Below are positions 1,770-64,000 of a stretch of 64,000 nt of DNA, piece after piece (within the stretch, counting starts at the first letter, position 1; every line of letters starts with the position of its first letter). The stretch lies in assembly GCF_056746865.1 (NCBI RefSeq), contig NZ_CM163382.1. One strand, written 5' to 3'. Both the position numbers and the translations under genes were made by a program. The notes under the pieces are model-generated. The model was not told the DNA's origin. It did no database searches and saw nothing but the letters and a program-made list of their open reading frames with translations.

Positions 1770-3773
1770 ATGTCCCGAAAAGACCTTGCCAATGCGATTC
1801 GCGCACTCAGTATGGATGCGGTACAAAAAGCCAATTCTGGTCATCCCGGCGCGCCGATGGGCATGGCTGATATTGCCGAAGTGCTGTGGAACGATTTTCT
1901 TAAACATAACCCCACCGACCCAACCTGGTATGATCGCGACCGCTTTATTCTTTCCAACGGCCACGCGTCGATGCTGCTCTACAGTTTGCTACATCTGACC
2001 GGTTACGACCTGCCGCTGGAAGAACTGAAGAACTTCCGTCAGTTGCATTCAAAAACCCCAGGTCACCCGGAGATTGGCTATACGCCAGGTGTTGAAACCA
2101 CCACCGGTCCACTTGGACAAGGTTTGGCGAACGCCGTCGGACTGGCGATAGCAGAGCGTACACTGGCGGCGCAGTTTAACCAGCCGGATCATGAAATTGT
2201 CGATCACTTCACCTATGTGTTTATGGGCGACGGTTGCCTGATGGAAGGTATTTCCCACGAAGTCTGTTCGCTGGCGGGCACGCTGGGACTGGGCAAGCTG
2301 ATTGGTTTTTACGATCACAACGGTATTTCCATCGACGGTGAAACCGAAGGCTGGTTTACCGACGATACAGCAAAACGTTTTGAAGCCTATCACTGGCATG
2401 TGATCCATGAAATCGACGGTCACGATCCGCAGGCGGTGAAGAAAGCGATCCTTGAAGCGCAAAGCGTGAAAGATAAGCCGTCGCTGATTATCTGCCGCAC
2501 AGTAATTGGCTTTGGTTCGCCGAATAAAGCAGGTAAGGAAGAGGCGCACGGCGCACCGCTGGGGGAAGAAGAAGTGGCGCTGGCACGGCAAAAACTGGGC
2601 TGGCACCATCCGCCATTTGAGATCCCTAAAGAGATTTATCACGCCTGGGATGCCCGCGAAAAAGGCGAAAAAGCGCAGCAGAGCTGGAATGAGAAGTTTG
2701 CCGCCTATAAAAAGGCCCATCCGCAACTGGCAGAAGAGTTTACCCGTCGGATGAGCGGTGGTTTACCGAAGGACTGGGAGAAAACGACTCAGAAATATAT
2801 CAATGAATTACAGGCGAATCCGGCGAAAATCGCCACCCGTAAGGCTTCGCAAAATACGCTTAACGCTTATGGCCCCTTGCTACCGGAGCTGCTCGGCGGT
2901 TCGGCGGATCTGGCTCCCAGCAACCTGACCATCTGGAAAGGTTCTGTGTCGCTGAAGGAAGATCCGGCGGGCAACTACATTCACTACGGGGTGCGTGAAT
3001 TTGGCATGACCGCTATCGCCAACGGCATTGCGCACCACGGCGGCTTTGTGCCGTATACCGCGACGTTCCTGATGTTTGTTGAATACGCCCGTAACGCCGC
3101 GCGGATGGCGGCACTAATGAAAGCGCGGCAGATTATGGTTTATACCCACGACTCAATTGGTCTGGGCGAAGATGGTCCTACGCACCAGGCTGTTGAGCAA
3201 CTGGCCAGTCTGCGCTTAACGCCAAATTTCAGCACCTGGCGACCGTGCGATCAGGTGGAAGCAGCGGTGGGCTGGAAGCTGGCCGTTGAGCGCCACAACG
3301 GACCGACGGCACTGATCCTCTCCAGGCAGAATCTGGCCCAGGTGGAACGTACGCCGGATCAGGTTAAAGAGATTGCTCGTGGCGGTTATGTACTGAAAGA
3401 CAGCGGCGGTAAGCCAGATATTATTTTGATTGCCACCGGTTCAGAGATGGAAATCACCCTGCAAGCGGCAGAGAAATTAGCGGGAGAAGGTCGCAATGTA
3501 CGCGTAGTTTCCCTGCCCTCGACCGATATTTTCGACGCCCAGGATGAGGAATATCGGGAGTCGGTGTTGCCTTCTAACGTTGCGGCTCGCGTGGCGGTGG
3601 AAGCAGGCATCGCCGATTACTGGTACAAATATGTTGGTCTGAAAGGGGCAATTGTCGGGATGACCGGCTATGGGGAATCTGCTCCGGCAGATAAGCTGTT
3701 CCCGTTCTTTGGCTTTACCGCCGAGAATATTGTGGCAAAAGCGCATAAGGTGCTGGGAGTGAAAGGTGCCTGA
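1770..3773 (+). CDS. tktB: transketolase 2
   Basis: ORF 1707-3773; true start taken as ATG 1770 ([21 protein letters not shown]...), giving 667 aa; thiamine-diphosphate transketolase motifs. Confidence 0.95.
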
Positions 3774-3796
3774 TGGTGATCGCCGGATGCTGTATG

Positions 3797-3866
3797 TTCC
3801 CCTCACCCTAACCCTCTCCCCAGAGGGGCGAGGGGACGGTCCGTGCGCTTTTTAGGGGCGCATCTG
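3797..3866. repeat. GC-rich imperfect palindromic intergenic repeat (BoxC/REP-like) between convergent tktB and ypfG
   Basis: ttcccctcaccctaaccctctccccagaggggcgaggggacggtccgtgcgcttttt: CCCTCTCCCC/GGGGCGAGGGG inverted arms; family assignment from memory only. Confidence 0.35.
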
Positions 3867-3875
3867 GGATTTTGT

Positions 3876-4919
3876 TTAACGGGTGATCCACAACGTGGGC
3901 CAGGCGTCTGGCCCATGCCAGTTATCACAGGTGGGTTCTGCGGCGTAACGCACCAGGCGAAAACGCTGACCGTCAAAGCGCCAGCGCGCCTGAATGCCAC
4001 AATCGCTTAATCCGCGCCCTTTTGCTAAGGTCACCAGTTCACGCGATTTTTCATCGAATGTTGCGTTCATCAGTTCCAGTTCATTCGTCTCCTGACCGCT
4101 GTTGAACGGCAAACGTAACCGAACCGGGCGCGAGGCCAGTGGCTTTTTACGCGACACAATCCAGGCCAAATCAATGGTGTTATAGGCCCCTGCCTCACAG
4201 CTAATCATCATCAGCGCTTTATCATCGGTCAGCGCAGTGACATTTACCTCTCGACGCAATGGATCAAGCGAGCAGCGCAGACCATTCATCCGCCAGTTTC
4301 CATAATCCAGCAAATCGTTGCGTTCTTCGAGTGAGAGTGGCGTCGGCGTTGGGTTAACCACCGCGACCTCTTTCAGCGCAGGCGCGGGCGGTACGCTGAG
4401 CGGCGGTTCATCCCCTTTCTTTATCCACGCGGTTTCACTGCCAACGCGCTTTTGCTGAGCATCTATAAACAACAACGCCGCTTTTAAGCCACTCAGAGAA
4501 ATGGTCTGATTGCCATCGCGTAAGGTGATTGCCTTCCCTTCCTGAATCATCTGCAAAAACGCGGTGAGGGTTGCCGTATCATCGGTTACTAATAACCATG
4601 GTGAAATCCGCCACTTGTCACCACTTAATGCCAACGGCTCACCATCTAACAGCAGCCGTGGCGCTATCTCCCCTTCCGACGCATCCGGCGACTTCAACCC
4701 GCCGCGCTCAATACGTAAAACGGCATCGGTATGCGCCCCAGCGCTGCGGCTCAGGGTCATCACCAGTCCATTATGATCGCCCGTATTGCGCGCCACACAA
4801 AAATTTTGATTATTACAGGTGACCTGCCAGTCGGAAAACGCCCGTTGCGCTGGTGCCGCCCACACCAAAGACGTCGGCAACAAAGCGAAAAAAAAGAGAA
4901 GGAAAATGCGATAGCGCAT
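3876..4919 (-). CDS. ypfG: DUF1176 family periplasmic protein YpfG
   Basis: 347-aa ORF with N-terminal signal peptide (MRYRIFLLFFFALLPTSLVWA); length matches K-12 YpfG. Confidence 0.9.
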   Translation of the reverse strand: MRYRIFLLFFFALLPTSLVWAAPAQRAFSDWQVTCNNQNFCVARNTGDHNGLVMTLSRSAGAHTDAVLRIERGGLKSPDASEGEIAPRLLLDGEPLALSGDKWRISPWLLVTDDTATLTAFLQMIQEGKAITLRDGNQTISLSGLKAALLFIDAQQKRVGSETAWIKKGDEPPLSVPPAPALKEVAVVNPTPTPLSLEERNDLLDYGNWRMNGLRCSLDPLRREVNVTALTDDKALMMISCEAGAYNTIDLAWIVSRKKPLASRPVRLRLPFNSGQETNELELMNATFDEKSRELVTLAKGRGLSDCGIQARWRFDGQRFRLVRYAAEPTCDNWHGPDAWPTLWITR

Positions 4920-5044: not shown

Positions 5045-5620
5045 TCAGTCCATTAAATGTGACGTTTGCAAATAGTTAAGCAATAACACCGTCTTACCGT
5101 CACGTATCTCGCCGGTTTTGATCATCTCCAGCGCCTGGCTGAACGGCAGCTCGAGCACTTCAATATCTTCATCTTCGACACCGCCACCGGCGTTAGCGCG
5201 CTGATTGTCACTGTATTCGGCGATAAAAAAGTGGATTAGCTCAGTCACACCGCCTGGGGACATATACAGTTCAAATAATTTGCGCACTTCGCCCACTTCA
5301 TAGCCCGTCTCTTCAATCGCCTCTTTGCGAATGCACACTTCCGGTTCGTCGTTATCCAGCAGCCCGGCGCAGGTTTCAATCAGTTGCCCGCTTTCATTGC
5401 CATTAACCCAGGTAGCGACACGGAACTGACGAATCAGAACCACGGTCTTTTTCTTCGCGTTGTACAGGAGGATCGTCGCACCATTACCGCGATCGTAAAC
5501 TTCACGTTTATGACGGATAACTTCGCCATCTTTGCGCGTGAGATCGTAAGTAATGTTGTGCAGGGTGAAATAGTTATCGGAGAGAATTTTGTCTTTAATG
5601 AGGGTGATTTGTTGCGTCAT
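5045..5620 (-). CDS. nudK: GDP-mannose pyrophosphatase (Nudix hydrolase) NudK
   Basis: ORF 5045-5647; start placed at ATG 5620 ([18 protein letters not shown]...), 191 aa; Nudix box present. Confidence 0.9.
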
Positions 5621-5687
5621 ACCGACTCCACAGCGCGAAATGAACAATTATCTTACGCTGTGAAGCCGGGTTTGTCTGCGCAGGCTA

Positions 5688-32870: not shown

Positions 32871-33625
32871 GTCCAGTGCTTACGCAACATGTCAGCCAGC
32901 CCATCACGCTGGACGAGCAAACGCAAAAGATGAAGCAGCATTTGCTACAGGATATCCGTCGCTCGGCTTACGTTTATCGCGTCGATTGCGGCGGCTGCAA
33001 CGCCTGTGAAATCGAAATTTTTGCTGCCATCACACCCGTATTCGACGCAGAACGTTTTGGCATTAAGGTTGTTTCATCACCGCGTCACGCCGATATTTTG
33101 TTATTTACTGGCGCAGTCACCCGGGCGATGCGTATGCCTGCACTTCGGGCGTATGAGTCTGCCCCCGATCATAAAATTTGTGTTTCCTACGGCGCGTGCG
33201 GTGTCGGCGGCGGTATTTTCCACGATCTTTACAGCGTCTGGGGCGGCAGCGACACCATTGTCCCCATTGATGTTTGGATCCCCGGCTGCCCGCCAACACC
33301 GGCCGCCACCATTCACGGTTTCGCCGTGGCGCTCGGTTTGCTGCAACAGAAGATTCACGCGGTGGATTATCGCGATCCCACCGGGGAGACCATGCAACCG
33401 CTGTGGCCGCAGATCCCGCCATCACAGCGTATCGCCATTGAGCGAGAAGCGAGGCGGCTGGCGGGCTATCGTCAGGGGCGAGAAATTTGCGATCGGCTCC
33501 TGCGCCATTTAAGCGACGATCCTACAGGAAATCGGGTTAACACCTGGTTGCGCGATGCCGACGATCCGCGTCTCAATAGTATCGTTCAGCAACTCTTTCG
33601 CGTACTCCGGGGGTTACATGACTGA
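32867..33625 (+). CDS. hyfI: hydrogenase-4 small subunit (NuoB-like)
   Basis: 252-aa ORF; NuoB-type Cys motifs (CGGCNAC, GACG, CPP); start overlaps the hyfH stop. Confidence 0.9.
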
Positions 33626-34031
33626 AGAGTGCAGGGAAATTGTTTTCTGGACGCTGCGAAAAAAGTTTGTCGCCAGTAGCGACGAGATGCCGGAACACAG
33701 CTCCCAGGTAATGTATTACTCGCTAGCTATCGGCCATCACGTTGGCGTGATTGATTGTCTGAATGTCGCCTTCCGCTGCCCACTGACGGAATACGAAGAT
33801 TGGCTTGCACTGGTCGAAGAGGAGCAAGCCCGACGTAAGATGCTGGGGGTGATGACCTTTGGTGAGATTGTTATTGACGCCAGCCACACCACCCTGTTGA
33901 CCCGGGCATTCGCGCCACTGGCAGATGACGCGACGTCTGTGTGGCAGGCGCGTAGCATTCAATTCATTCATCTGTTGGATGAAATTGTGCAGGAACCGGC
34001 CATCTATCTGATGGCCAGAAAAATTGCGTGA
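33618..34031 (+). CDS. hyfJ: hydrogenase-4 component J (HycH-like maturation/assembly protein)
   Basis: ORF 33555-34031; start placed at ATG 33618 ([17 protein letters not shown]...), 137 aa. Confidence 0.85.
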
Positions 34032-34060: not shown

Positions 34061-36073
34061 ATGGCTATGTCAGACGAGGCGATGTTTGCCCCGCCGCAAG
34101 GAATAACAATTGAAGCGGTAAACGGAATGCTCGCGGAGCGGTTAGCGCAGAAACACGGCAAGGCGTCTTTATTACGCGCCTTCATCCCGCTGCCGCCGCC
34201 GTTCAGCCCGGTACAACTTATTGAACTGCACGTTCTCAAAAGCAACTTCTATTACCGCTACCATGATGATGGCAGCGATGTGACGGCAACAGCAGAGTAT
34301 CAGGGCGAGATGGTCGATTATTCGCGTCACGCCGTCCTTCTCGGCAGTAGTGGAATGGCGGAGCTACGCTTTATTCGCACCCACGGCAGTCGTTTTACTC
34401 CCCAGGATTGCACACTGTTTAACTGGCTGGCACACATAATCACTCCGGTTCTGCAATCATGGCTCAATGATGAAGAACAGCAGGTGGCGCTGCGTTTGCT
34501 GGAGAAAGATCGCGATCATCATCGGGTACTGGTGGATATCACTAATGCAGTGTTGTCACATCTTGATCTCGACGATCTGATCGCTGACGTCGCTCGTGAG
34601 ATCCATCATTTTTTCGGTCTGGCTTCAGTCAGTATGGTACTGGGCGATCATCGAAAGAACGAGAAGTTCAGCCTGTGGTGCAGCGATCTTTCTGCCTCAC
34701 ATTGTGCGTGTCTGCCACGCTGTATGCCTGGCGAAAGTGTATTGCTGACACAAACGCTACAAACCCGACAACCGACCTTGACGCACCGTGCAGACGATCT
34801 GTTTCTCTGGCAACGCGACCCGTTATTACACTTACTTGCATCTAACGGCTGCGAATCTGCGCTCCTTATACCGCTCACCTTTGGCAACCATACACCGGGC
34901 ACATTGTTGCTGGCGCATACCTCTTCCACTCTCTTTAGTGAGGAAAACTGCCAGCTACTACAACATATTGCCGATCGCATCGCTATTGCCGTTGGCAATG
35001 CCGATGCCTGGCGCAGCATGACCGATTTGCAGGAAAGCTTGCAGCAAGAAAACCACCAGCTTAGCGAGCAGCTCCTTTCGAATCTGGGCGTCGGTGACAT
35101 TATCTATCAAAGCCAGGCAATGGAAGATTTGCTCCAGCAGGTAGATATTGTGGCGAAGAGCGACAGTACGGTGTTGATTTGTGGTGAAACCGGAACCGGC
35201 AAAGAGGTGATCGCCAGAGCGATCCATCAACTTAGCCCACGACGCGACAAGCCACTGGTCAAAATCAACTGCGCTGCCATCCCCGCCAGTCTTCTGGAAA
35301 GTGAGTTATTCGGTCATGACAAAGGGGCATTTACTGGTGCGATTAATACCCATCGTGGTCGTTTTGAAATTGCCGATGGCGGCACGTTGTTTCTCGATGA
35401 AATTGGCGATCTGCCGTTAGAACTTCAGCCTAAACTGCTGCGCGTATTGCAGGAACGGGAGATTGAGCGTCTCGGCGGGAGTAGAACGATCCCGGTAAAT
35501 GTCAGAGTCATTGCCGCCACCAACCGTGATTTGTGGCAAATGGTTGAAGATCGCCAGTTTCGCAGCGATCTCTTTTATCGCCTGAATGTCTTCCCACTGG
35601 AATTGCCCCCGCTACGCGACCGTCCGGAAGATATCCCTCTTTTAGCAAAACATTTCACGCAAAAAATGGCGCGCCATATGAATCGCGCAATTGACGCCAT
35701 CCCGACCGAGGCGCTACGCCAGTTGATGTCGTGGGACTGGCCGGGCAACGTGCGCGAGCTGGAAAACGTGATTGAGCGGGCGGTACTACTGACTCGCGGT
35801 AACAGTCTGAATTTACATCTTAATGTCCGACAAAGCCGTTTACTGCCGACGCTAAATGAAGATTCAGCGCTTCGCAGTTCAATGGCACAGTTGCTGCACC
35901 CGACGACGCCAGAGAATGACGAAGAAGAACGTCAGCGCATTGTTCAGGTATTGCGAGAAACCAATGGCATTGTTGCCGGGCCCCGTGGCGCGGCGACACG
36001 ATTAGGGATGAAGCGCACCACGCTGCTGTCACGAATGCAGCGTCTGGGGATCTCGGTTCGCGAGGTGTTGTAA
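34061..36073 (+). CDS. hyfR: sigma-54-dependent transcriptional activator of the hyf operon (FhlA-like)
   Basis: ORF 34058-36073; start at ATG 34061 (MAMSDEAMF...), 670 aa; AAA+ sigma-54 activator motifs ([14 protein letters not shown]) and C-terminal HTH. Confidence 0.9.
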
Positions 36074-53073: not shown

Positions 53074-53164
53074 TAGACTGGCCCCCTGAATCTCCAGACA
53101 ACCAATATCACTTAAATAAGTGATAGTCTTAATACTAGTTTTTAGACTAGTCATTGGAGAGCAG

Positions 53165-53530
53165 ATGATTGATGTCTTAGGACCGGAGAAACGCAGACGG
53201 CGTACTACACAGGAAAAGATCGCTATTGTTCAGCAGAGTTTTGAACCGGGAATGACGGTCTCCCTTGTTGCCCGGCAACACGGTGTGGCAGCCAGCCAGT
53301 TATTTCTCTGGCGCAAGCAATACCAGGAGGGAAGTCTTACTGCTGTGGCCGCAGGAGAGCAGGTCGTTCCTGCCTCTGAACTTGCTGCTGCCATGAAGCA
53401 GATTAAAGAACTCCAGCGCCTGCTCGGCAAAAAAACGATGGAAAATGAACTCCTTAAAGAAGCCGTTGAATACGGGCGTGCAAAAAAGTGGATAGCGCAC
53501 GCGCCCTTATTGCCCGGGGATGGGGAGTAA
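53165..53530 (+). CDS. insC: IS2 transposase OrfA (InsC; HTH DNA-binding component)
   Basis: ORF 53120-53530; start placed at ATG 53165 ([24 protein letters not shown]...), 121 aa. Confidence 0.9.
53482..53488 (+). other. IS2 programmed -1 ribosomal frameshift slippery site (A6G) in the insC/insD overlap
   Basis: AAAAAAG heptamer inside the 43-nt overlap of insC and insD; IS3-family OrfAB fusions are made by -1 frameshifting at such sites. Confidence 0.6.
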
Positions 53531-54393
53531 GCTTAGTCAGCCGTTGTCTCCGGGTGTCGCGTGCGCAGTTGCACGTCATTCTCAGACGAACCGATGACTG
53601 GAAAGATGGTCGCCGCAGCCGTCACTCAGATGATACGGATGTGCTTCTCCGTATACACCATGTTATCGGAGAGCTGCCCACGTATGGTTATCGTCGGGTA
53701 TGGGCGCTGCTTCGCAGACAGGCCGAACTTGATGGTATGCCTGCGATCAATGCCAAACGTGTTTACCGGATCATGCGCCAGAATGCGCTGTTGCTTGAGC
53801 GAAAAACCGCTGTACCGCCATCGAAACGGGCACATACTGGCAAAGTGGCCGTGAAAGAAAGCAATCAACGATGGTGCTCTGACGGGTTCGAGTTCCGCTG
53901 TGATAACGGAGAAAAACTGCGAGTCACGTTCGCGCTGGACTGCTGTGACCGTGAGGCACTGCACTGGGCAGTCACTACGGGCGGCTTCGACAGTGAAACA
54001 GTACAGGACGTAATGCTGGGAGCGGTGGAACGCCGCTTCGGCAACGAGCTTCCGGCGTCTCCAGTAGAGTGGCTGACGGATAATGGTTCATGCTACCGGG
54101 CTAATGAAACACGGCAGTTTGCCCGGATGTTGGGGCTTGAACCGAAGAACACGGCGGTGCGGAGTCCGGAGAGTAACGGCATAGCAGAGAGCTTCGTGAA
54201 AACGATAAAGCGTGACTACATCAGTATCATGCCTAAACCAGACGGGTTAACGGCAGCAAAGAACCTTGCAGAGGCGTTCGAGCATTATAACGAATGGCAT
54301 CCGCATAGTGCACTGGGTTATCGCTCGCCACGGGAATATCTACGGCAGCGGGCCAGTAATGGGTTAAGTGATAACAGGTGTCTGGAAATATAG
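53488..54393 (+). CDS. insD: IS2 transposase OrfB (InsD; DDE integrase-like catalytic component)
   Basis: 301-aa ORF ([23 protein letters not shown]...); rve-type integrase core. Confidence 0.9.
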
Positions 54394-54476: not shown

Positions 54477-54935
54477 TTACTTACGGCCCGTAAACGGGCT
54501 GCCCGGATAGGGAATCGATAACTGCTCTCCCATTTTATCCTCTTCAAGCTGGTGCTTTATGTAATCCTGTATCTTCGCCGTGTTCTTACCCACTGTATCG
54601 ACGTAGTACCCTCTGCACCAGAACTCCCTGTTCCTGTATTTGAATTTCAAATCACCAAACTGCTCGTAAAGCATCAGACTGCTTTTCCCTTTCAGATATC
54701 CCATAAACCCGGATACGCTCATTTTAGGCGGGATCTCCACAAGCATATGGATATGATCTGCACAGCATTCAGCTTCCAGAATCCGTACGCTTTTCCACTC
54801 ACACAGCTTTCTCAAAATACTGCCTATTGCTCTACGCTTCTCTCTGTAGAACACCTGTCTTCGGTATTTTGGCGCAAAAACTATGTGATATTTACAGTTC
54901 CATCGGGTGTGCGCTAAGCTCTTTTCGTTCCCCAT
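54477..54935 (-). CDS. tnpA: IS200 transposase TnpA (Y1/HuH single-strand transposase)
   Basis: ORF 54477-54986; start placed at ATG 54935 preceded by GGGGG (MGNEKSLAHTRWNCKYHIVFAPKYRRQVFY...), 152 aa; HuH motif (HIHMLV) and catalytic Tyr region. Confidence 0.9.
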   Translation of the reverse strand: MGNEKSLAHTRWNCKYHIVFAPKYRRQVFYREKRRAIGSILRKLCEWKSVRILEAECCADHIHMLVEIPPKMSVSGFMGYLKGKSSLMLYEQFGDLKFKYRNREFWCRGYYVDTVGKNTAKIQDYIKHQLEEDKMGEQLSIPYPGSPFTGRK

Positions 54936-54940
54936 TGGGA

Positions 54941-55010
54941 CCCCCTTTTGATTTCTTGTTTGACACTTGCAGTTGCCAGACCGCAAGGTGTTTTAACAAA
55001 TCAAAAGGGG
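54941..55010 (-). promoter_or_regulatory. IS200 5'-UTR stem-loop that sequesters the tnpA ribosome-binding site
   Basis: CCCCTTTTGATTT (54941-54953) and AAATCAAAAGGGG (54998-55010) are exact reverse complements; the arm next to the ATG contains the Shine-Dalgarno sequence. Confidence 0.6.
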
Positions 55011-55108: not shown

Positions 55109-55234
55109 GTTCATTCATAGTGCAGGGTCAAATCATTCCCACTCAATTGTTTACGACAATCATAACCAATTGAGTGATAACATTTTTCCAAAACTTAATT
55201 TTTCTAGTACCGTTTTATATACCGTCACCGGAAA

Positions 55235-57059: not shown

Positions 57060-57187
57060 TTATTTCACATAAACAACTCCATTAAATAAATGTTTATCAT
57101 ACACAATAAACCATTTATGGATAATTATTACTCGTGATTTTTATGATTATTCGCGCATTTTTCTATCATTTTTATCCAGTGTGCCGT

Positions 57188-57211
57188 AAAACCACGTCCT
57201 TAAGGGCGTGG
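57188..57211 (-). terminator. hairpin terminator downstream of the tail fiber gene
   Basis: Minus strand: CCACGCCC-ttaa-GGACGTGG followed by TTTTAC; about 160 bp after the tail fiber stop. Confidence 0.5.
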
Positions 57212-57236
57212 ATGATGTCAACTGATGATGTCAACT
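57211..57236. repeat. perfect tandem direct repeat 2 x 13 bp (GATGATGTCAACT) in the tail fiber - holin intergenic region
   Basis: gatgatgtcaact gatgatgtcaact read directly from the sequence at 57211-57223 and 57224-57236. Confidence 0.7.
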
Positions 57237-57372
57237 ATTGGCTGGCTTTGACTGATATTGCAGGAGTTGTTGGATAAGATTTAAGTGACCGTCAAAGCGG
57301 TCACTTATGAGAAAAGGAAGTTAGACAAAGTGGCAAACAGGCTCATTGATGGCTACGTCAATGACCAAGGTT

Positions 57373-59775
57373 TCATTCAGACTCCAGCAACTCTATCCTG
57401 GCGAGAAGCGCTTCATATTTATCAAGTAATCGAGAGTAGTTCCTTCGTTGCATTGCAGCTTCCATTACCAACATTTCTTCATAACGAATGCCGTAACGGG
57501 AACCAGCTTCTATAGCAGGAGTGATTACCTCACCGGTTTCATCATCTATGACGGCAGGAGTGTCACCCCATTCATCATAACAGATGAAACCAAAGCGATG
57601 AGCATCAAGACCATGCCTTTCGAATGCCTCCACGTACCGTTGAGCAATGGCGCCGAAGTGCCAGCGGGCGCCATCAGCGCCTTTTTCTTTAATCCTATCC
57701 AGATACTTATACTGGACTAGCTGAACCTCTTCTGCGGCATCGAGAATGGCATCAGTCATTAGTAATGGGTCTGATTTGCAAATGGCATCTGACGTGATAG
57801 TGAACGCCGTTTGAGTGAATCCACCAGACCACGGAAACGAACTTGCCCCGCAAGGATAGGTATTTGCCGTGGCAGGACGTATTTGCTTCACAGCAAATAC
57901 GTGCGACGTCATTTCTGCTGTACCAGAACCCGTAACGCCGGGATCTCCACCAGAGACACGTAAAATCCCTGTAGGGACAGATGAGTCCGTCGATGAATAA
58001 AAGCGAATCTGCTGTGCTTCTGCAACACCAGGGTTACATAGCTTAATAGCTTTAGTTGTGAACGCATTAGTATCCGTATCAAATATCCAGTATCTGTTGT
58101 TTGAACCACCATCTATAATAACGTTCGCAAGAGATACACCAACTCGCTGTATATTAGAAATATTGTTAGCATTAGTACCAGCAGTTAACTGAATACCCCT
58201 TGTGCAATTATTTACACGCGAGTTACTAATAGTATTATTAGCAGCAAATCTAGTGCCAGCGGTATTTCCTGTCAGGAGAGTATGCGTAGTGTCCTTACTG
58301 AAGCCTGTCAATAACACCTCATTATTAGTGAACGTACCGTACTGAGCACATGATTTAAAACCGATATAAGGTGTGGTTAAATCCTCAGGAATACCATTCC
58401 ATACCATACAAAAGTTATCTGTAATTACACTATGGTTTCCTCCATTGTTAGACAAATCACCCAACTCTACAGCACTTATGGAAGTATTGAAGTGGTTATT
58501 TGTAACCTGGAACAGGTTACCAACATTGTTTTCAGAAACAACTCCGCGGCGACCAGCAATGATATGGTTACCGAAAACCACAACACCTTCGGTATCGTCA
58601 TGCGCGTACATGAAGGTGTCGAAGTTCTGATAAGAACCATTGACAATATTGATATTCTTTGTTGAGTACAGGTCGAATATTTTACCCATTCGATATGCTG
58701 GTACAGATGTTCCTCCACCAGTTACGTTAACGCCGTCAAATACACACTGACCAGCTCTGCTTAGCTTAAAGACAGTATCAAAAGAGGATTGAGTACCAGC
58801 ATCATTTGACACATCCAGGTCACGAACGATAAGTTGTCGGGCGTATTCGATTCCCCCTGTCCCTAAAAACGTAAGCGCAGTACCCTGAAGTTGCCCGGTA
58901 GCTTTTATCGTGAAATTACGTAAACCAACAGGTTTTCTTACTACAGTCGTACCCGAGTTATCAATGATAAGACCATATCCAGCAGCAAATTTTATTCCGC
59001 ATGTAGCCATGCTTACGCCAAAAACATCACTATAAAAATTAGTTACTGAGATGTCGCTTGAGCAGTTGTATATACGACGAAGCTTAATATCTAGACCAGT
59101 TTCCTTTGCTGCAGTAAAGGCATTGATCAGTGCCAAGGTATCATCAGCATCACCTCCAACAGCGCCAAAATCCTCAGGAGTGAGTGATTCCCTCATTTTA
59201 TCCTGGAACGTTCGGTATACTGCCCCATAACCATACTGAATAAACCAACCAAAACCACCAACAACCCCGGCGATTGCAGCATCGACATAATTACGCATTG
59301 AGCGATTATTTACAGCGTCCTGCTCAAGTGATGGATCTGCAAGGTTAGAAATTCTGTTTTGCTTTGCATCGTAATATTTTGCAAGCAAAGATGGTTTCAT
59401 CAATGCACGTCTGAACCACCCAAAACATTGCTGGATCAGCATCGTCAGGTAGTCAAAGGCATCTTCATGCACTTCGGGAAAAAACTTTCCCTGATTGCGA
59501 AGGTCTGTCTCCTGTACTACATCAAGCACACGATCTATCGTAATTCGCCATCCAGTAGCAAGCGGAGACGGAAGAACCACAGAACCGCCACTATAAGTGC
59601 CCGCCCCAGTTACCGTATAACCGGTATCCAGAACCAATTCTGTTACGTTCCCGTTCAGGTCAGACACCTGAACAACCAGGTCTGATTTTCTGAAAATTCG
59701 AAAAGTATACGGAAACGATGTCGTAACGCCGTTACCTGTGTATTCGTTGTGGTCAACTTCGGTTGAGACCGTCAT
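57373..59775 (-). CDS. prophage tail fiber/tailspike (N-terminal virion-attachment domain, central beta-helix-like domain, C-terminal intramolecular chaperone domain)
   Basis: 800-aa ORF preceded by GGAG; N-terminus has the tail-fiber motif ...NRISNLADPSLEQDAVN... (compare T7 gp17 RIVNLANAVDDRDAV); middle is Gly/Asn/Thr-rich repeat typical of beta-helix tailspikes; C-terminal ~130 aa resemble S74-type chaperone domains. Confidence 0.8.
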   Translation of the reverse strand: MTVSTEVDHNEYTGNGVTTSFPYTFRIFRKSDLVVQVSDLNGNVTELVLDTGYTVTGAGTYSGGSVVLPSPLATGWRITIDRVLDVVQETDLRNQGKFFPEVHEDAFDYLTMLIQQCFGWFRRALMKPSLLAKYYDAKQNRISNLADPSLEQDAVNNRSMRNYVDAAIAGVVGGFGWFIQYGYGAVYRTFQDKMRESLTPEDFGAVGGDADDTLALINAFTAAKETGLDIKLRRIYNCSSDISVTNFYSDVFGVSMATCGIKFAAGYGLIIDNSGTTVVRKPVGLRNFTIKATGQLQGTALTFLGTGGIEYARQLIVRDLDVSNDAGTQSSFDTVFKLSRAGQCVFDGVNVTGGGTSVPAYRMGKIFDLYSTKNINIVNGSYQNFDTFMYAHDDTEGVVVFGNHIIAGRRGVVSENNVGNLFQVTNNHFNTSISAVELGDLSNNGGNHSVITDNFCMVWNGIPEDLTTPYIGFKSCAQYGTFTNNEVLLTGFSKDTTHTLLTGNTAGTRFAANNTISNSRVNNCTRGIQLTAGTNANNISNIQRVGVSLANVIIDGGSNNRYWIFDTDTNAFTTKAIKLCNPGVAEAQQIRFYSSTDSSVPTGILRVSGGDPGVTGSGTAEMTSHVFAVKQIRPATANTYPCGASSFPWSGGFTQTAFTITSDAICKSDPLLMTDAILDAAEEVQLVQYKYLDRIKEKGADGARWHFGAIAQRYVEAFERHGLDAHRFGFICYDEWGDTPAVIDDETGEVITPAIEAGSRYGIRYEEMLVMEAAMQRRNYSRLLDKYEALLARIELLESE

Positions 59776-59860
59776 GTTAAATCTCCAGATAGTCGCAGCA
59801 CCCGTTGCGCCGCATATCTGGTTATTCTATTACCTGAAAAACCACATATGGATAGAAAGG

Positions 59861-59876
59861 CTGTAAATACGAATAG
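59861..59876. promoter_or_regulatory. weaker second LexA-like box (CTGT-N8-ATAG)
   Basis: CTGTaaatacgaATAG, one mismatch in the distal ACAG half-site, about 70 bp upstream of the strong box. Confidence 0.3.
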
Positions 59877-59931
59877 ATATTACCTTTCAGGTAATTTGCA
59901 AAACGTGCTGGATAGCAAACAAATTATTTGC

Positions 59932-59951
59932 TACTGTATAAATATACAGTT
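59932..59951 (+). promoter_or_regulatory. LexA (SOS) box immediately upstream of the small plus-strand ORF
   Basis: tACTGTATAAATATACAGtt matches the LexA consensus TACTGTATATATATACAGTA at 18/20 with CTGT-N8-ACAG intact; ends 6 bp before ATG 59957. Confidence 0.7.
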
Positions 59952-59956
59952 ATTGC

Positions 59957-60229
59957 ATGGAGAAGATTAAGATGCAGCAGTATCACTATCCACTGGAAGA
60001 CGGATTTACCGAAAGGATTCACACGCCGGGAGGCGTCAGGTCACTGGTGGAGGGATCGCACTTGATGAAATTACTCCGGGATCTCGATAAGGATGGATTT
60101 AATGTCGATGGCCCACTTGCCGAACTGACTGCACTGATTAACTACGTCACCAGCTCACAGATGTCTATGCGGGATCTGCAAACACATCTCGACTATTGTG
60201 CCGAACAATTACGAAAACAAACCCGGTAA
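59957..60229 (+). CDS. small SOS-box-associated prophage protein of unknown function (90 aa, or 85 aa from ATG 59972 which has the better GGAGA Shine-Dalgarno)
   Basis: ORF in track; soluble, charged, no TM segment; LexA box overlaps its promoter region; convergent with the 98-aa membrane protein gene. Confidence 0.55.
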   Translation: MEKIKMQQYHYPLEDGFTERIHTPGGVRSLVEGSHLMKLLRDLDKDGFNVDGPLAELTALINYVTSSQMSMRDLQTHLDYCAEQLRKQTR

Positions 60230-60235
60230 ATTTAA

Positions 60236-60273
60236 AGGCCGCAAGAGCGGCCTGTGACATGTCACGCTCTTTT
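60236..60273. terminator. bidirectional terminator between the convergent small genes
   Basis: GGCCGC-aaga-GCGGCC hairpin then GTGACATGTCAC palindrome and CTCTTTTTC; T-rich on both strands (tttaaattt on the minus side). Confidence 0.55.
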
Positions 60274-60558
60274 TCTGAATGATAGCCATTCGAAAAATGA
60301 TGACATTCCACCGCAGACAATAGCAAAGATGATCCCACCAAAGAAGAGAAGGCCAGCCTGCCACCACTCCCACCGCCATACATCCACAGCGCCAACCATA
60401 CCAACAATCGCTCCAACAAATGGAATATAGCTCACGATGAAAGCAATGGGGGCTGCAATTATCCAGTGCAATCCCCACCATGATTCAAGCCCAGCCATAA
60501 TTGCTGCCAACTGAAAAAGACCAACGACGATATAAACAATGAATCCTATAGCTTGCAT
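60262..60558 (-). CDS. small 3-TM inner-membrane protein of unknown function (moron; candidate superinfection-exclusion or conversion protein)
   Basis: 98-aa ORF with AGGTGA Shine-Dalgarno; three hydrophobic helices, Trp-rich loop (VDVWRWEWWQAG), basic C-terminus FRKRA. Confidence 0.6.
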   Translation of the reverse strand: MQAIGFIVYIVVGLFQLAAIMAGLESWWGLHWIIAAPIAFIVSYIPFVGAIVGMVGAVDVWRWEWWQAGLLFFGGIIFAIVCGGMSSFFEWLSFRKRA

Positions 60559-60570
60559 GTAGTCACCTAT

Positions 60571-60744
60571 TTACCCAGTAAAAATCAGAGGCCTCCCCTC
60601 AATAAGGCTTGCAACAAGAACTATTCCCTGCACAACAAAGATGAACCAGCAAATAGCTTGAGTCTGAGGGTTAAGAAAATATTTGTAGCGGTCAATAAAT
60701 AACAACCCACCAGAAATTATCACACTCAAAATAATTAAAAACAC
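60571..60744 (-). CDS. possible 57-aa two-TM membrane peptide (GTG start), translationally coupled to the upstream virion protein gene
   Basis: Not in ORF track (under 60 aa). GTG 60744 is preceded by AAGGAAG overlapping the 824-aa gene stop; product (M)FLIILSVIISGGLLFIDRYKYFLNPQTQAICWFIFVVQGIVLVASLIEGRPLIFTG; same frame as the upstream gene. Confidence 0.35.
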   Translation of the reverse strand: MFLIILSVIISGGLLFIDRYKYFLNPQTQAICWFIFVVQGIVLVASLIEGRPLIFTG

Positions 60745-60753
60745 AACACTTCC

Positions 60754-63228
60754 TTATTGCGGAGTGACATCCTGAGGTCGCCACCAGTATGTCTGGTTAA
60801 ACTCTTTCTTCGAACGTTGCTCCATTTTACGCAAATAGCCTGGTGAAAAATACTCCTGCATCTGGTTAAAGATCATATGATCGAGAGCCGCCTTTAAGTA
60901 CCAGAGATTCGCACCTGGCATCAAACCTTTCCCCAGCTTCACCAGATCACCACCAGTCTGCTCACTCTTCCCTTCCACAGCATTTAACGGTATGCCCTGA
61001 GCAATCTTCACTACGTCATCAACCAGACCAGCTACCGGGCCAAGCATCGACGCCAGCGCGCCGCTTCCGTACCTAGTGTGATCTGACAATAAAAAGTCAC
61101 CGTAAAGGCCAAGACCACCACCTTTCAGTAGAGCACCAAGCCAAAATTTAGCAGCATCTTCTCCTGTCATCTCGCGAGGATTACGACCAGACGCAAGGTC
61201 GTTAAGTTGCTGCGACAAAGCGCCAAGAATGGTCGTACTGGCAATAAACGTCGCAATATATGCCGCACGCCCACCAGCAGACGGCATACCCATAGCGCGT
61301 GACCAGTGACGCATAACCACCGAGATAGGGAACGATTTAAACAGGAAAACACTTCTCGTTAATTCACCTTTCCATGTTCCACGCTGAATACCAGAACCGG
61401 TTATCAGTTGCTCACGTGCTCCCGGTGTAATAACAGCCATATCAACTTCTTCAGTTACGGCACCGAGCAGTTTACGCATTGCCTCAAATTTCACGCGTTC
61501 AGGCTCACCAAGATGTTTAACTGCTGAATCAGGGATACGCATAATGCTTTCCGGTGTCAGCATCGTATTATTGCCGTTCCCCCAGTCCTCCTGTTGCGCC
61601 AGCTTCCATACGCTCCAGTCTGTGTCAGTAATCCCTTTGCTTTTCAGGATACGAAAATCAGAATCATCGAGGCTACGAAGGTCTGGTGTCCGTGACACTA
61701 CTTCTCCCAGGCTTCCCATCATGGTTACGCCATAGGCGCGCTTGTGCGCATCTGACCATGCTGTAAGCCCACTGGCACGCATTACCGCCGTTGCAGCCCA
61801 ACGAGACACAGACGGCCCCATATTATCCATCGCCCAGCGGTTAACGCTGCCAAGTAGAGATTCCATCGCCAGACCAGCGCGGCGCGCCCGCGCAAGTTCT
61901 GTACGGTTCGTTGGGTCCATAGCTTCAAGCTGGTTGCGGAATAACTGGTTCATTGGAAGGTTGGTAACCTTCGCAGACAGATACATGGTTCCAAGATCAG
62001 AGAACGATGACAGCAACGCGGATCCGAGTCTGCTGGCAACCAGCCAGTTGCGGATATTGTCAGACCATCGCGCGATGTGCGGATTCGCTACAGGCTGTGT
62101 CTTTCCGGAAATAAAATTGTACAGATTCTCTGTGTTGTTCGCCAGCCGCTCGACTTTACCGGTTTTACTCGGGTTAGCTGTTGCCGTTTCTGCCTTCACC
62201 TGATCAAGAAGAGAGCGGAAAACATGATCGGGGTTTGGGCCATATGTTTCCACCAGTGCAATATCTTTACTGATACCTTCAAGGTGACCGACCATGATTT
62301 CCCATAGAGAGCGATCGCCATAAAGTTGCTGATATTGCAGATAGGAATCTGCATCTTTGAAATGTATCTGTCGTGATGCATTACCACGGTTAGCACGTGC
62401 GCCGGAAATTCGCATTCCGGTATCAGTAAGCTTATTCAGCCCACCAGTAGCGATCGTGTTATAAGCCTCTCCAAGAAATGCAGACAACTCGGCATCGTTC
62501 ATCAGTTGTCCATCGGCTCGGGTATAATATTTGCGATCCAGCTTACCTATAACATCGCTAACCCATTTATCTTTTGATACCGCCCCAACCTTTTCCATAG
62601 AATGATGTTGAGGGATCCCCCAGTTTTCGAGATAGCCAATGTCCCCACCAGCATCATTAAACCGGCGGCGCAGCAGCTCTGTAACTTCTCTCCACGCCTT
62701 AGCACCTTTTCTTGCTTTAGCATTGCCAGTATTTTGCCCCCGCATTTCATATACCAGGTCACGTACGCCCGCTTCATCTTCAAACAGACCAAAAAAGCGA
62801 GGATCAACTGCTTCGAATGCCTCCTGCAATTGACTCAATGCATAATCACGGGTGGCTTTTGTTCTGGATTCAACAGAGAGGAAATTCGATTTACCGTCTG
62901 CATTAAAAGCAATAGTACGGTTAAGAGCGCCAAGTTTCCCATCAGCCCCTTGATAGCTATTGATAAATTTATCCAATCTCTGACGTGCGGCTATAGTGAG
63001 GGCCACACGACGTTTCTTTAATGCCGCTTCTCGCTGTAATTCTTCAGATGCCAATTGTGCTGCACGATACAACCGTTCTGATTCGGAAAGTTGTCGCCAC
63101 GACATCGGGTCATCACGAGCAATGGAGCGCATATTTCGATAAATGCGGTCTTCAATGTTCTGTATTTCTCGCGCCGTTAACGTGCGCTGCGCCGCCTGCT
63201 GGACCGCTTGTATACATTCCTGTCTCAT
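60754..63228 (-). CDS. large prophage virion protein, function unknown (putative internal virion / DNA-ejection protein by position)
   Basis: 824-aa ORF; N-terminal coiled-coil, Gly-rich C-terminal region; directly upstream of the tail fiber module; no catalytic motif recognised. Confidence 0.6.
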   Translation of the reverse strand: MRQECIQAVQQAAQRTLTAREIQNIEDRIYRNMRSIARDDPMSWRQLSESERLYRAAQLASEELQREAALKKRRVALTIAARQRLDKFINSYQGADGKLGALNRTIAFNADGKSNFLSVESRTKATRDYALSQLQEAFEAVDPRFFGLFEDEAGVRDLVYEMRGQNTGNAKARKGAKAWREVTELLRRRFNDAGGDIGYLENWGIPQHHSMEKVGAVSKDKWVSDVIGKLDRKYYTRADGQLMNDAELSAFLGEAYNTIATGGLNKLTDTGMRISGARANRGNASRQIHFKDADSYLQYQQLYGDRSLWEIMVGHLEGISKDIALVETYGPNPDHVFRSLLDQVKAETATANPSKTGKVERLANNTENLYNFISGKTQPVANPHIARWSDNIRNWLVASRLGSALLSSFSDLGTMYLSAKVTNLPMNQLFRNQLEAMDPTNRTELARARRAGLAMESLLGSVNRWAMDNMGPSVSRWAATAVMRASGLTAWSDAHKRAYGVTMMGSLGEVVSRTPDLRSLDDSDFRILKSKGITDTDWSVWKLAQQEDWGNGNNTMLTPESIMRIPDSAVKHLGEPERVKFEAMRKLLGAVTEEVDMAVITPGAREQLITGSGIQRGTWKGELTRSVFLFKSFPISVVMRHWSRAMGMPSAGGRAAYIATFIASTTILGALSQQLNDLASGRNPREMTGEDAAKFWLGALLKGGGLGLYGDFLLSDHTRYGSGALASMLGPVAGLVDDVVKIAQGIPLNAVEGKSEQTGGDLVKLGKGLMPGANLWYLKAALDHMIFNQMQEYFSPGYLRKMEQRSKKEFNQTYWWRPQDVTPQ

Positions 63229-63233
63229 TTAAT

Positions 63234-64000
63234 TTAACCTCTCAAGAAACACGCCACAGCAACATCAAACAGGCTGGAATCCTGTATTGCCTGCTCACTT
63301 TCCCTGTTCGCTTCATCCAGTACTTCACGCGCACTGCGCGATTGTGGATTACCATCATCATCCAGCACGGTGATTATCATGTCAGGTGATTCAAGCAGCG
63401 AGTCTTCAGCTATGCGCAGATCAATATCTCCTGCCTGATCTGACATCATTTTTTGTTCTGCCTGTTGCAATATTTTATCAGGCTCAAAAGGAGCTACTTC
63501 GTCTGGCGTCCTGACCTCTGCTGTTTTATAGAATGAAACAGCCTGAGCATTAAGTTCACTTTCTGCCTGCTGTCTCCGAGCCAGTTCTGCTCGAGCTTCA
63601 AAAAACTGACCGCCAGGCTCGTGCGGTGCCAACGCGTTACGGGAAAATTCCAGGCGTTCTTGTGCCTGCCGGATTCGTTGATCAATATCGCGAAGTCTGG
63701 CCTGTTTATCTGATCGAGCACGAGACAAAGCTTTACCGCTACCGGTTGGCTCTTCTGCAAGAATTTGTGCACGCTGTTCAGTGAGATTTTCAATAATTCG
63801 TTGGCTATTAGCGATTTCAGACTGGTAAACCTGTCTATCTCCACGCGGCAAAAGCTGCGCGGCCTGTTCTTCAAGCAACCGATTTTCTATAGCGCGCGCC
63901 GTTACTCCATCATCTACAGATGACAGAGCCTCATTAACTGCCTGAGACAGCAGACTCTTGCGCCCAGGAATTTCACTGAAAGATGCAGACTCAACAATGC
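63234..64000 (-). CDS. prophage coiled-coil virion/ejection-associated protein, C-terminal part (5' end beyond window)
   Basis: ORF track gives 63234-63878, but the same frame stays open to the window end (...SEIPGRKSLLSQAVNEALSSVDDGVTARAIENRLLEEQAAQ...); Gln/Glu/Arg-rich coiled-coil. Confidence 0.55.
   Translation of the reverse strand, partial: IVESASFSEIPGRKSLLSQAVNEALSSVDDGVTARAIENRLLEEQAAQLLPRGDRQVYQSEIANSQRIIENLTEQRAQILAEEPTGSGKALSRARSDKQARLRDIDQRIRQAQERLEFSRNALAPHEPGGQFFEARAELARRQQAESELNAQAVSFYKTAEVRTPDEVAPFEPDKILQQAEQKMMSDQAGDIDLRIAEDSLLESPDMIITVLDDDGNPQSRSAREVLDEANRESEQAIQDSSLFDVAVACFLRG

Follow-up and report, generated by a model that had tools for sequence, protein, structure and literature searches.

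The locus at 59861-60273 raises the question of what is encoded by a small gene that lies inside a prophage late region and has a near-consensus LexA operator directly in front of it. The whole stretch of DNA analyzed, referred to below as the window, comprises 64,000 nt of the contig NZ_CM163382.1. The first-pass annotation of this DNA could not assign the gene to any family and considered it to be a LexA-controlled accessory gene of a degraded prophage, namely a trans-acting antirepressor, a DinI-like modulator or an SOS-induced toxin. The locus is best explained as an SOS-input module belonging to a prophage of the epsilon15/phiV10 type (Uetakevirus) with its integration point at 55131-55147; the small gene is called ant below.

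Prophage organization around ant

Similarity to phages of the phiV10 type starts exactly at the att core, whose sequence ATTGAGTGGGAATGATT is the attachment core of the phages phiV10, epsilon15 and vB_EcoP_ZX5 (PMC9782041). To the right of the core, the genes follow in the order Rz, family-19 endolysin, two holin-like genes, tailspike, ant, two small membrane-protein genes and an 824-aa gene. The following features were located:

53120-54393: IS2 (TnpA/TnpB), just outside the att junction
54477-54986: IS200 transposase gene, just outside the att junction
55131-55147: att core, prophage end
57373-59775, minus strand: tailspike gene
60262-60558, minus strand: hydrophobic ORF of 98 aa, PHROG 3075 (unknown function), at the late-operon end and convergent with ant
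60571-60744, minus strand: hydrophobic ORF of 57 aa, at the late-operon end and convergent with ant
past ant and the two small membrane-protein genes, minus strand: gene of the 824-aa virion protein

The ant gene is the sole plus-strand gene in the prophage block and all its neighbors are on the minus strand, so that its position between the virion-protein and tailspike genes and its opposite orientation agree with the initial description. The same synteny (824-aa gene, ant, tailspike, with ant reversed) is found in SPC32H, epsilon15 and phiV10, and in every relative examined. The 98-aa and 57-aa hydrophobic ORFs may encode membrane or exclusion proteins.

The description of the prophage as degraded was not borne out. 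The att core, the lysis genes, the tailspike gene and the 824-aa gene are intact, all prophage genes visible in the window are full length, the IS copies lie outside att, and the prophage runs off the window end, extending past 64000. The oac gene (O-antigen acetyltransferase), which is present in phiV10, SPC32H and the prophage of the E. coli strain FT130, is absent between the tailspike and holin genes (57060-57372), and the C-terminal part of the tailspike also differs from those of phiV10, SPC32H and FT130; this part is therefore regarded as a variable host-range/serotype-conversion module. None of the complete E. coli genomes in the collection matched the 10-kb end of the window over its whole length.

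LexA operator

59932-59951, no strand assigned: LexA operator (SOS box) TACTGTATAAATATACAGTT, unique in the window, conserved

The box matches the E. coli LexA consensus TACTGTATATATATACAGTA at 18/20 positions and is the sole site within three mismatches of the consensus in the 64-kb window, and no site at this threshold appeared in 100 dinucleotide-preserving shuffles of the window. Its strength was then expressed as a heterology index, for which 28 E. coli SOS boxes after the compilations of Lewis 1994 and Fernandez de Henestrosa 2000 served as the reference set. By this measure, whose absolute values are approximate, the box has an index of 0.85-1.04 and ranks ahead of the entire reference set, headed by the box of umuDC (1.31), and the next-best site in the window has an index of 8.96. 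Thus, both the mismatch scan and the matrix-type scoring confirm a near-consensus LexA box directly upstream of the small gene: the palindrome CTGT-N8-ACAG is complete, its spacer is AT-rich, and it scores as proven sites do. LexA presumably binds this box, and the gene is presumably SOS-induced in this strain.

A weaker CTGT-N8-ATAG box had also been suggested at 59861-59876. This candidate was rejected as a LexA site: its index of 16-18 lies beyond the values of the reference set, and it is not conserved in phiV10, SPC32H, epsilon15 or other relatives. The second-best LexA-like site of the window, AACTGTATATGTCCCCAGGC (5252-5271, minus strand, index about 9), is located within the ORF 5045-5647 (minus strand), approximately 330 bp upstream of a gene ending at 4919, and is probably not functional.

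The ant gene and its product

59972-60229, plus strand: ant, encoding an 85-aa antirepressor (assigned by orthology to SPC32H Ant, PDB 5D50 chain E, PHROG 450 and synteny)
59959-59962, plus strand: Shine-Dalgarno sequence GGAG, read from the sequence, 9 nt before ATG 59972 and kept in all aligned relatives

The ORF 59957-60229 (plus strand) is present as originally listed and encodes 90 aa from its first ATG. In phiV10, SPC32H and epsilon15 the corresponding ATG is not in frame with the gene; the start codon that is conserved is ATG 59972, and PGAP called the same 85-aa CDS in the near-identical strain FT130. The true start of ant is most likely ATG 59972, giving 85 aa, and the in-frame upstream ATG 59957 is probably unused.

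The Ant protein, which is hydrophilic, is 99% identical to gp24 of phiV10 and to the corresponding protein of vB_EcoP_ZX5, 85-87% identical over the full length to Ant of SPC32H and 81-83% identical to gp19 of epsilon15. In the GenBank record of SPC32H, the ortholog (gene SPC32H_020) is labelled 'ant, anti-repressor protein'. A phmmer search of PDB sequences returned a single match, 5D50 chain E 'Anti-repressor protein' (E=1.6e-46, residues 7-89), and a match to PHROG 450 was also obtained (E=2.4e-48). Pfam and NCBIfam scans of Ant revealed no family and gave noise matches only (DUF724 and UpsF), and this lack of a model fits the RefSeq label 'hypothetical protein', which the gene carries throughout the RefSeq and E. 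coli phage records examined, those of phiV10 and ZX5 among them, and also in the epsilon15 record.

Judging by these similarities, the window gene is the E. coli counterpart of SPC32H-type Ant, a DNA-damage-inducible antirepressor, and the system is already known by orthology. The gene can therefore no longer be called unassignable, since its ortholog in SPC32H is structurally characterized. Of the three kinds of product first proposed, the homology and profile searches support the trans-acting antirepressor under LexA control, and they returned no DinI. The SPC32H Ant system and the Rep-Ant complex in PDB 5D50 are reportedly the work of Kim & Ryu (2013, J Virol 87:11775) and Kim et al. (2016), and the former study is said to have shown both the LexA control of ant and the interaction of Ant with Rep.

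Conservation of the locus and its operator

In order to evaluate the conservation of the operator, 96 ant loci were collected from GenBank phages, IMG/VR contigs and genomes of Citrobacter, Pluralibacter, Scandinavium, Superficieibacter and Enterobacter, and 230 nt upstream of each were searched. An initial scan of IMG/VR gave only ant loci that were 98-100% identical; the diversity of the set was obtained from the GenBank phages and from a search of genome contigs encoding ant. The loci span eight genera (Escherichia, Salmonella, Citrobacter, Enterobacter, Klebsiella, Pluralibacter, Scandinavium and Superficieibacter). In 95 of the 96 loci, a LexA box whose index does not exceed 8.6 ends 19-22 nt before the ATG, and the lone exception (L081) has a rearrangement breakpoint within the box. 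The sequence of the box occurs in 16 variants among the 96 loci; most of them keep CTGT and ACAG and differ in the central spacer, and the Klebsiella-type variants have ATGT as the left half and an index of 5.8-8.6.

An alignment of the tailspike-ant spacer of nine phages from Escherichia, Salmonella, Enterobacter and Klebsiella revealed diverging flanks, among which three elements are kept: the LexA box, GGAG and, 17 bp upstream of the box, a CTGGA.A block. Such conservation is what selection for LexA binding would be expected to leave. The phages SPC32H and SPC32N differ at only two positions in 38,689 nt; one difference is in codon 5 of the tailspike gene, and the other changes the ACAG half-site of the ant LexA box to AAAG. 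According to what is reported of Kim & Ryu (2013), the operator difference underlies the differing lysogeny behavior of SPC32H and SPC32N.

Among 5426 complete E. coli genomes, the ant locus, represented by a 511-nt query containing the promoter and the gene, was found in 532, or about 10%.

Putative promoter and terminator

59909-59937, plus strand: putative ant promoter, -35 TGGATA at 59909-59914, 17-bp spacer, -10 TACTGT at 59932-59937 (proposed from conservation and by analogy with p95 of phage 186)
60236-60274, no strand assigned: hairpin AGGCCGC-AAGA-GCGGCCT at 60236-60253, small hairpin GTGACATGTCAC and T-run at 60270-74 (from a scan and folds)

A generic sigma-70 scan found no plus-strand promoter with a score of at least 9/12 upstream of ant, the proposed hexamers being weak, and the promoter was therefore proposed from conservation and from the analogy with phage 186. 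In the record of phage 186, the SOS box TACTGTATGTTTATACAGTA at the LexA-controlled p95 promoter of tum begins with the -10 hexamer TACTGT, and the LexA box of the window likewise begins with TACTGT (59932-59937). The blocks CTGGA.A and TA.TGT are invariant across the nine phages of four genera, and both hexamers fall on invariant columns. These data suggest TGGATA-N17-TACTGT as a putative ant promoter. The -10 element may alternatively be TATAAA (59937-42) or AATTAT (59922-27), the second and sixth bases of which (A and T) are invariant across the aligned phages. With every one of these candidates, LexA would sit on the -10 element or just downstream of it.

The gene had also been described as closed by its own terminator, and this holds in part. 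A GC-rich hairpin (60236-60253) does start 6 nt past the ant stop codon, with a fold of -17 kcal/mol and a z of about -2, but in the scan it was terminator-like only for the convergent minus-strand operon, and, read along the ant strand, the T-run is preceded by the second small hairpin, GTGACATGTCAC. A rho-independent terminator is annotated at the equivalent place in the epsilon15 record. The hairpin between ant and the convergent late operon may terminate transcription in both directions.

Presumed repressor partner and proposed mechanism

No Rep homologue was found in the window, as the prophage extends beyond its end at 64000. In the E. coli strain FT130 (L004), in which the 511-nt ant query region is 99.8% identical to the window, the neighbor of a cro-like gene encodes a 194-aa HTH protein, an arrangement shared with SPC32H. 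This protein has 42% identity to Rep of SPC32H, matches PDB 5D50 chain A (E=4e-42) and contains HTH domains only, without an S24 peptidase domain; self-cleavage is therefore not expected, and an antirepressor would be needed. The rep gene was found in 536 of the 5426 complete E. coli genomes vs. 532 for the ant locus.

In SPC32H, DNA is bound by a Rep tetramer, which an Ant tetramer takes apart by binding two Rep dimers (PMC9638917); the dimers so formed are inactive. Ant-Rep binding and SOS-dependent induction are known from the literature for SPC32H alone, and no experiments on the E. coli version of ant were found in the literature, in which the primary work on SPC32H was covered through reviews. 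Since the E. coli and SPC32H Rep proteins are only 42% identical, Ant-Rep binding is extrapolated to the E. coli pair.

The following mechanism can be proposed. In the undamaged cell, host LexA would occupy the near-perfect SOS box and ant would be silent, since LexA would then cover the -10 element and start region of the putative promoter, with which the box overlaps. DNA damage would activate RecA and lead to self-cleavage of LexA, after which the 85-aa Ant would be made. Ant would bind the prophage Rep, a two-HTH protein without a self-cleavage domain of the LexA/S24 type, and inactivate it; the lytic promoters would then be derepressed and the prophage induced. We consider it very probable that the locus works as such an SOS-input module, leading from LexA through Ant and Rep inactivation to prophage induction. 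The presence of the box and its strength, its conservation, the orthology to SPC32H Ant, the synteny and the Rep homologue of related E. coli prophages all argue for it.

Rep-type palindrome and putative tailspike promoter

59880-59894, no strand assigned: palindrome TTACCTTTCAGGTAA, predicted Rep operator motif, the sole exact TTACC-N5-GGTAA in the window
59824-59852, minus strand: putative tailspike promoter, -35 TCCATA at 59852-59847, 17-bp spacer, -10 TAGAAT at 59829-59824 (hexamers read from the sequence)

The palindrome is located 38 bp upstream of the LexA box. The GenBank record of epsilon15 annotates TTACC-N5-GGTAA as a predicted 'repressor' binding site. The SPC32H genome (L005) contains 10 exact copies, with a chance expectation of 0.74 even if one mismatch is allowed. 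They cluster around rep and precede most transcription units (34390-34451, 33528-33680 and others): the rep-cro spacer contains three sites (two exact and one with one mismatch), three exact copies are located downstream of rep, and single palindromes are found 21-107 bp upstream of late-gene start codons. The motif also recurs around rep in E. coli FT130 (L004, 37248-38084). In 95 of the 96 ant loci, the palindrome is present 91-94 nt before the ant ATG, with conserved arms and a variable spacer.

Most likely, the palindrome at 59880-59894 serves the divergent tailspike promoter, for which TCCATA-N17-TAGAAT on the minus strand is the probable sequence; the blocks ATTCTATTACC and ATATG.AT of this promoter are invariant in the nine phages. 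Judging by its position, the palindrome may also influence ant. In that case, a two-input promoter could be imagined, in which Rep would also dampen ant and Ant would relieve its own repression, resulting in a positive-feedback latch and irreversible induction. Separately, Ant proteins that are at least 85% identical, vs. Rep proteins that are 42% identical, could allow cross-induction between heteroimmune Uetakevirus prophages. These two proposals are speculative and we regard them as unlikely. Neither the Rep feedback on ant nor cross-induction within Uetakevirus was found described in the literature, with the SPC32H primary work again covered through reviews.

Comparison with known systems

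The window locus resembles SPC32H in the identity of Ant, the position and orientation of the gene, a LexA box ending some 20 nt upstream of the start codon, the Rep-type palindrome upstream and the assignment to Uetakevirus. It differs in the host, which is E. coli here and Salmonella for SPC32H, in the central spacer of the box (ATAAATAT here and ATGTTTAT in SPC32H), in the low identity of the presumed Rep partner of E. coli relatives, and in the 98-aa membrane-protein gene downstream of ant. The gp24 of phiV10, gp19 of epsilon15 and the vB_EcoP_ZX5 protein represent the same gene at the same locus with the same box. In the study of ZX5, a Bro-N protein, ORF4, was treated as the antirepressor, and neither the window-type gene nor SPC32H was mentioned (PMC9782041).

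Similarity in control was found with the p95 operon of phage 186, where host LexA also represses a small phage gene, tum, whose product inactivates a non-cleavable immunity repressor, and where the SOS box contains the -10 hexamer TACTGT, as proposed for ant. However, the phages belong to different families, Ant has no DinI-like domain, and no sequence relationship was detected. A single BLASTP comparison of Ant with Tum was not significant (E=0.056), and homology to Tum was rejected. The antirepressors of Gifsy and Fels-2 are LexA-controlled and follow the same logic according to a review. Ant is a functional analogue of Tum and of the Gifsy antirepressors, with the sequence comparison covering Tum.

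The position between ejection-protein genes and the tailspike gene is shared with the immI region (mnt-arc-ant) of the podovirus P22. However, the control by Mnt and Arc in P22 corresponds to LexA here, the window has no second antirepressor gene, and Ant contained neither a Bro-N nor a P22_AR_N domain in the Pfam scan. Proteins of the Bro-N (PF02498) and P22_AR_N (PF10547) types are encoded just downstream of ant in relatives, and their C-terminal parts of about 80 residues are 35-49% identical to full-length Ant.

Alternative explanations

The locus could also be a relic that has outlived its function, if Rep or other essential genes of the prophage had been lost; the Ant made during the SOS response would then be idle, or its only targets would be incoming phages and other Uetakevirus prophages, reached in trans. 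The window stops short of the far end of the prophage and shows no rep. In FT130, the portal gene is directly followed by the cro-like gene and rep (L004, 35053-37950), and the terminase and replication genes of SPC32H are not annotated, which suggests a defective prophage that keeps ant, the LexA box and rep. Yet rep is retained even there, the counts of rep and ant loci in E. coli genomes are near-equal, the close relatives vB_EcoP_ZX5 and phiV10 are viable phages, and the prophage genes seen in the window are all of full length. We therefore consider loss of function improbable and prefer the complete SOS-input module.

The two other products initially proposed for the gene were rejected, and we assign both of them only a minimal probability. 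A modulator of RecA or of the SOS response, similar to DinI or Tum and not binding a repressor, would be in line with the LexA-box-in-promoter layout shared with tum of phage 186 and with the DinI-like C-terminal part of Tum. Nevertheless, the similarity to Tum does not exceed the insignificant level given above, neither DinI nor any other family was matched in Pfam or NCBIfam, and the protein is 85% identical to one that was crystallized bound to Rep. Just as implausible is an SOS-induced toxin or a small membrane peptide of the TisB, DinQ or HokE type: the only feature that speaks for it is the strong LexA box before a small ORF, and Ant is a hydrophilic protein with full-length homology to a soluble tetrameric antirepressor. 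Moreover, an Rfam scan of 59600-60800 detected no antisense RNA or Rfam family at the locus, and the small hydrophobic ORFs nearby belong to the late operon, which runs on the opposite strand. An antirepressor directed at Rep remains the preferred function of Ant.

Annotation of ant and the adjacent variable region

The practical value of these results lies in annotation: a LexA-controlled antirepressor present in about a tenth of complete E. coli genomes is labelled 'hypothetical protein', and ant was missed in at least one experimental study that looked for the antirepressor of a near-identical E. coli phage. Recognition of ant explains how DNA damage is sensed by phiV10-type prophages, including those of O157 and other pathogenic E. 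coli, whose repressor lacks a self-cleavage domain. No new biological question is opened by the locus, which leaves a gap in annotation to be closed.

In relatives, the interval separating ant from the 824-aa gene was found to be a hot spot of cargo genes (L003, 3762-4441; L089, L090, L094, L098, L099 and L100, about 3070-4850). Among the cargo are antirepressors of the Bro-N or P22_AR_N type, in some cases accompanied by Arc/Mnt-like genes, as well as HicAB and YafO. In phiV10, the C-terminal (Ant-like) part of the downstream antirepressor is split by a frameshift.
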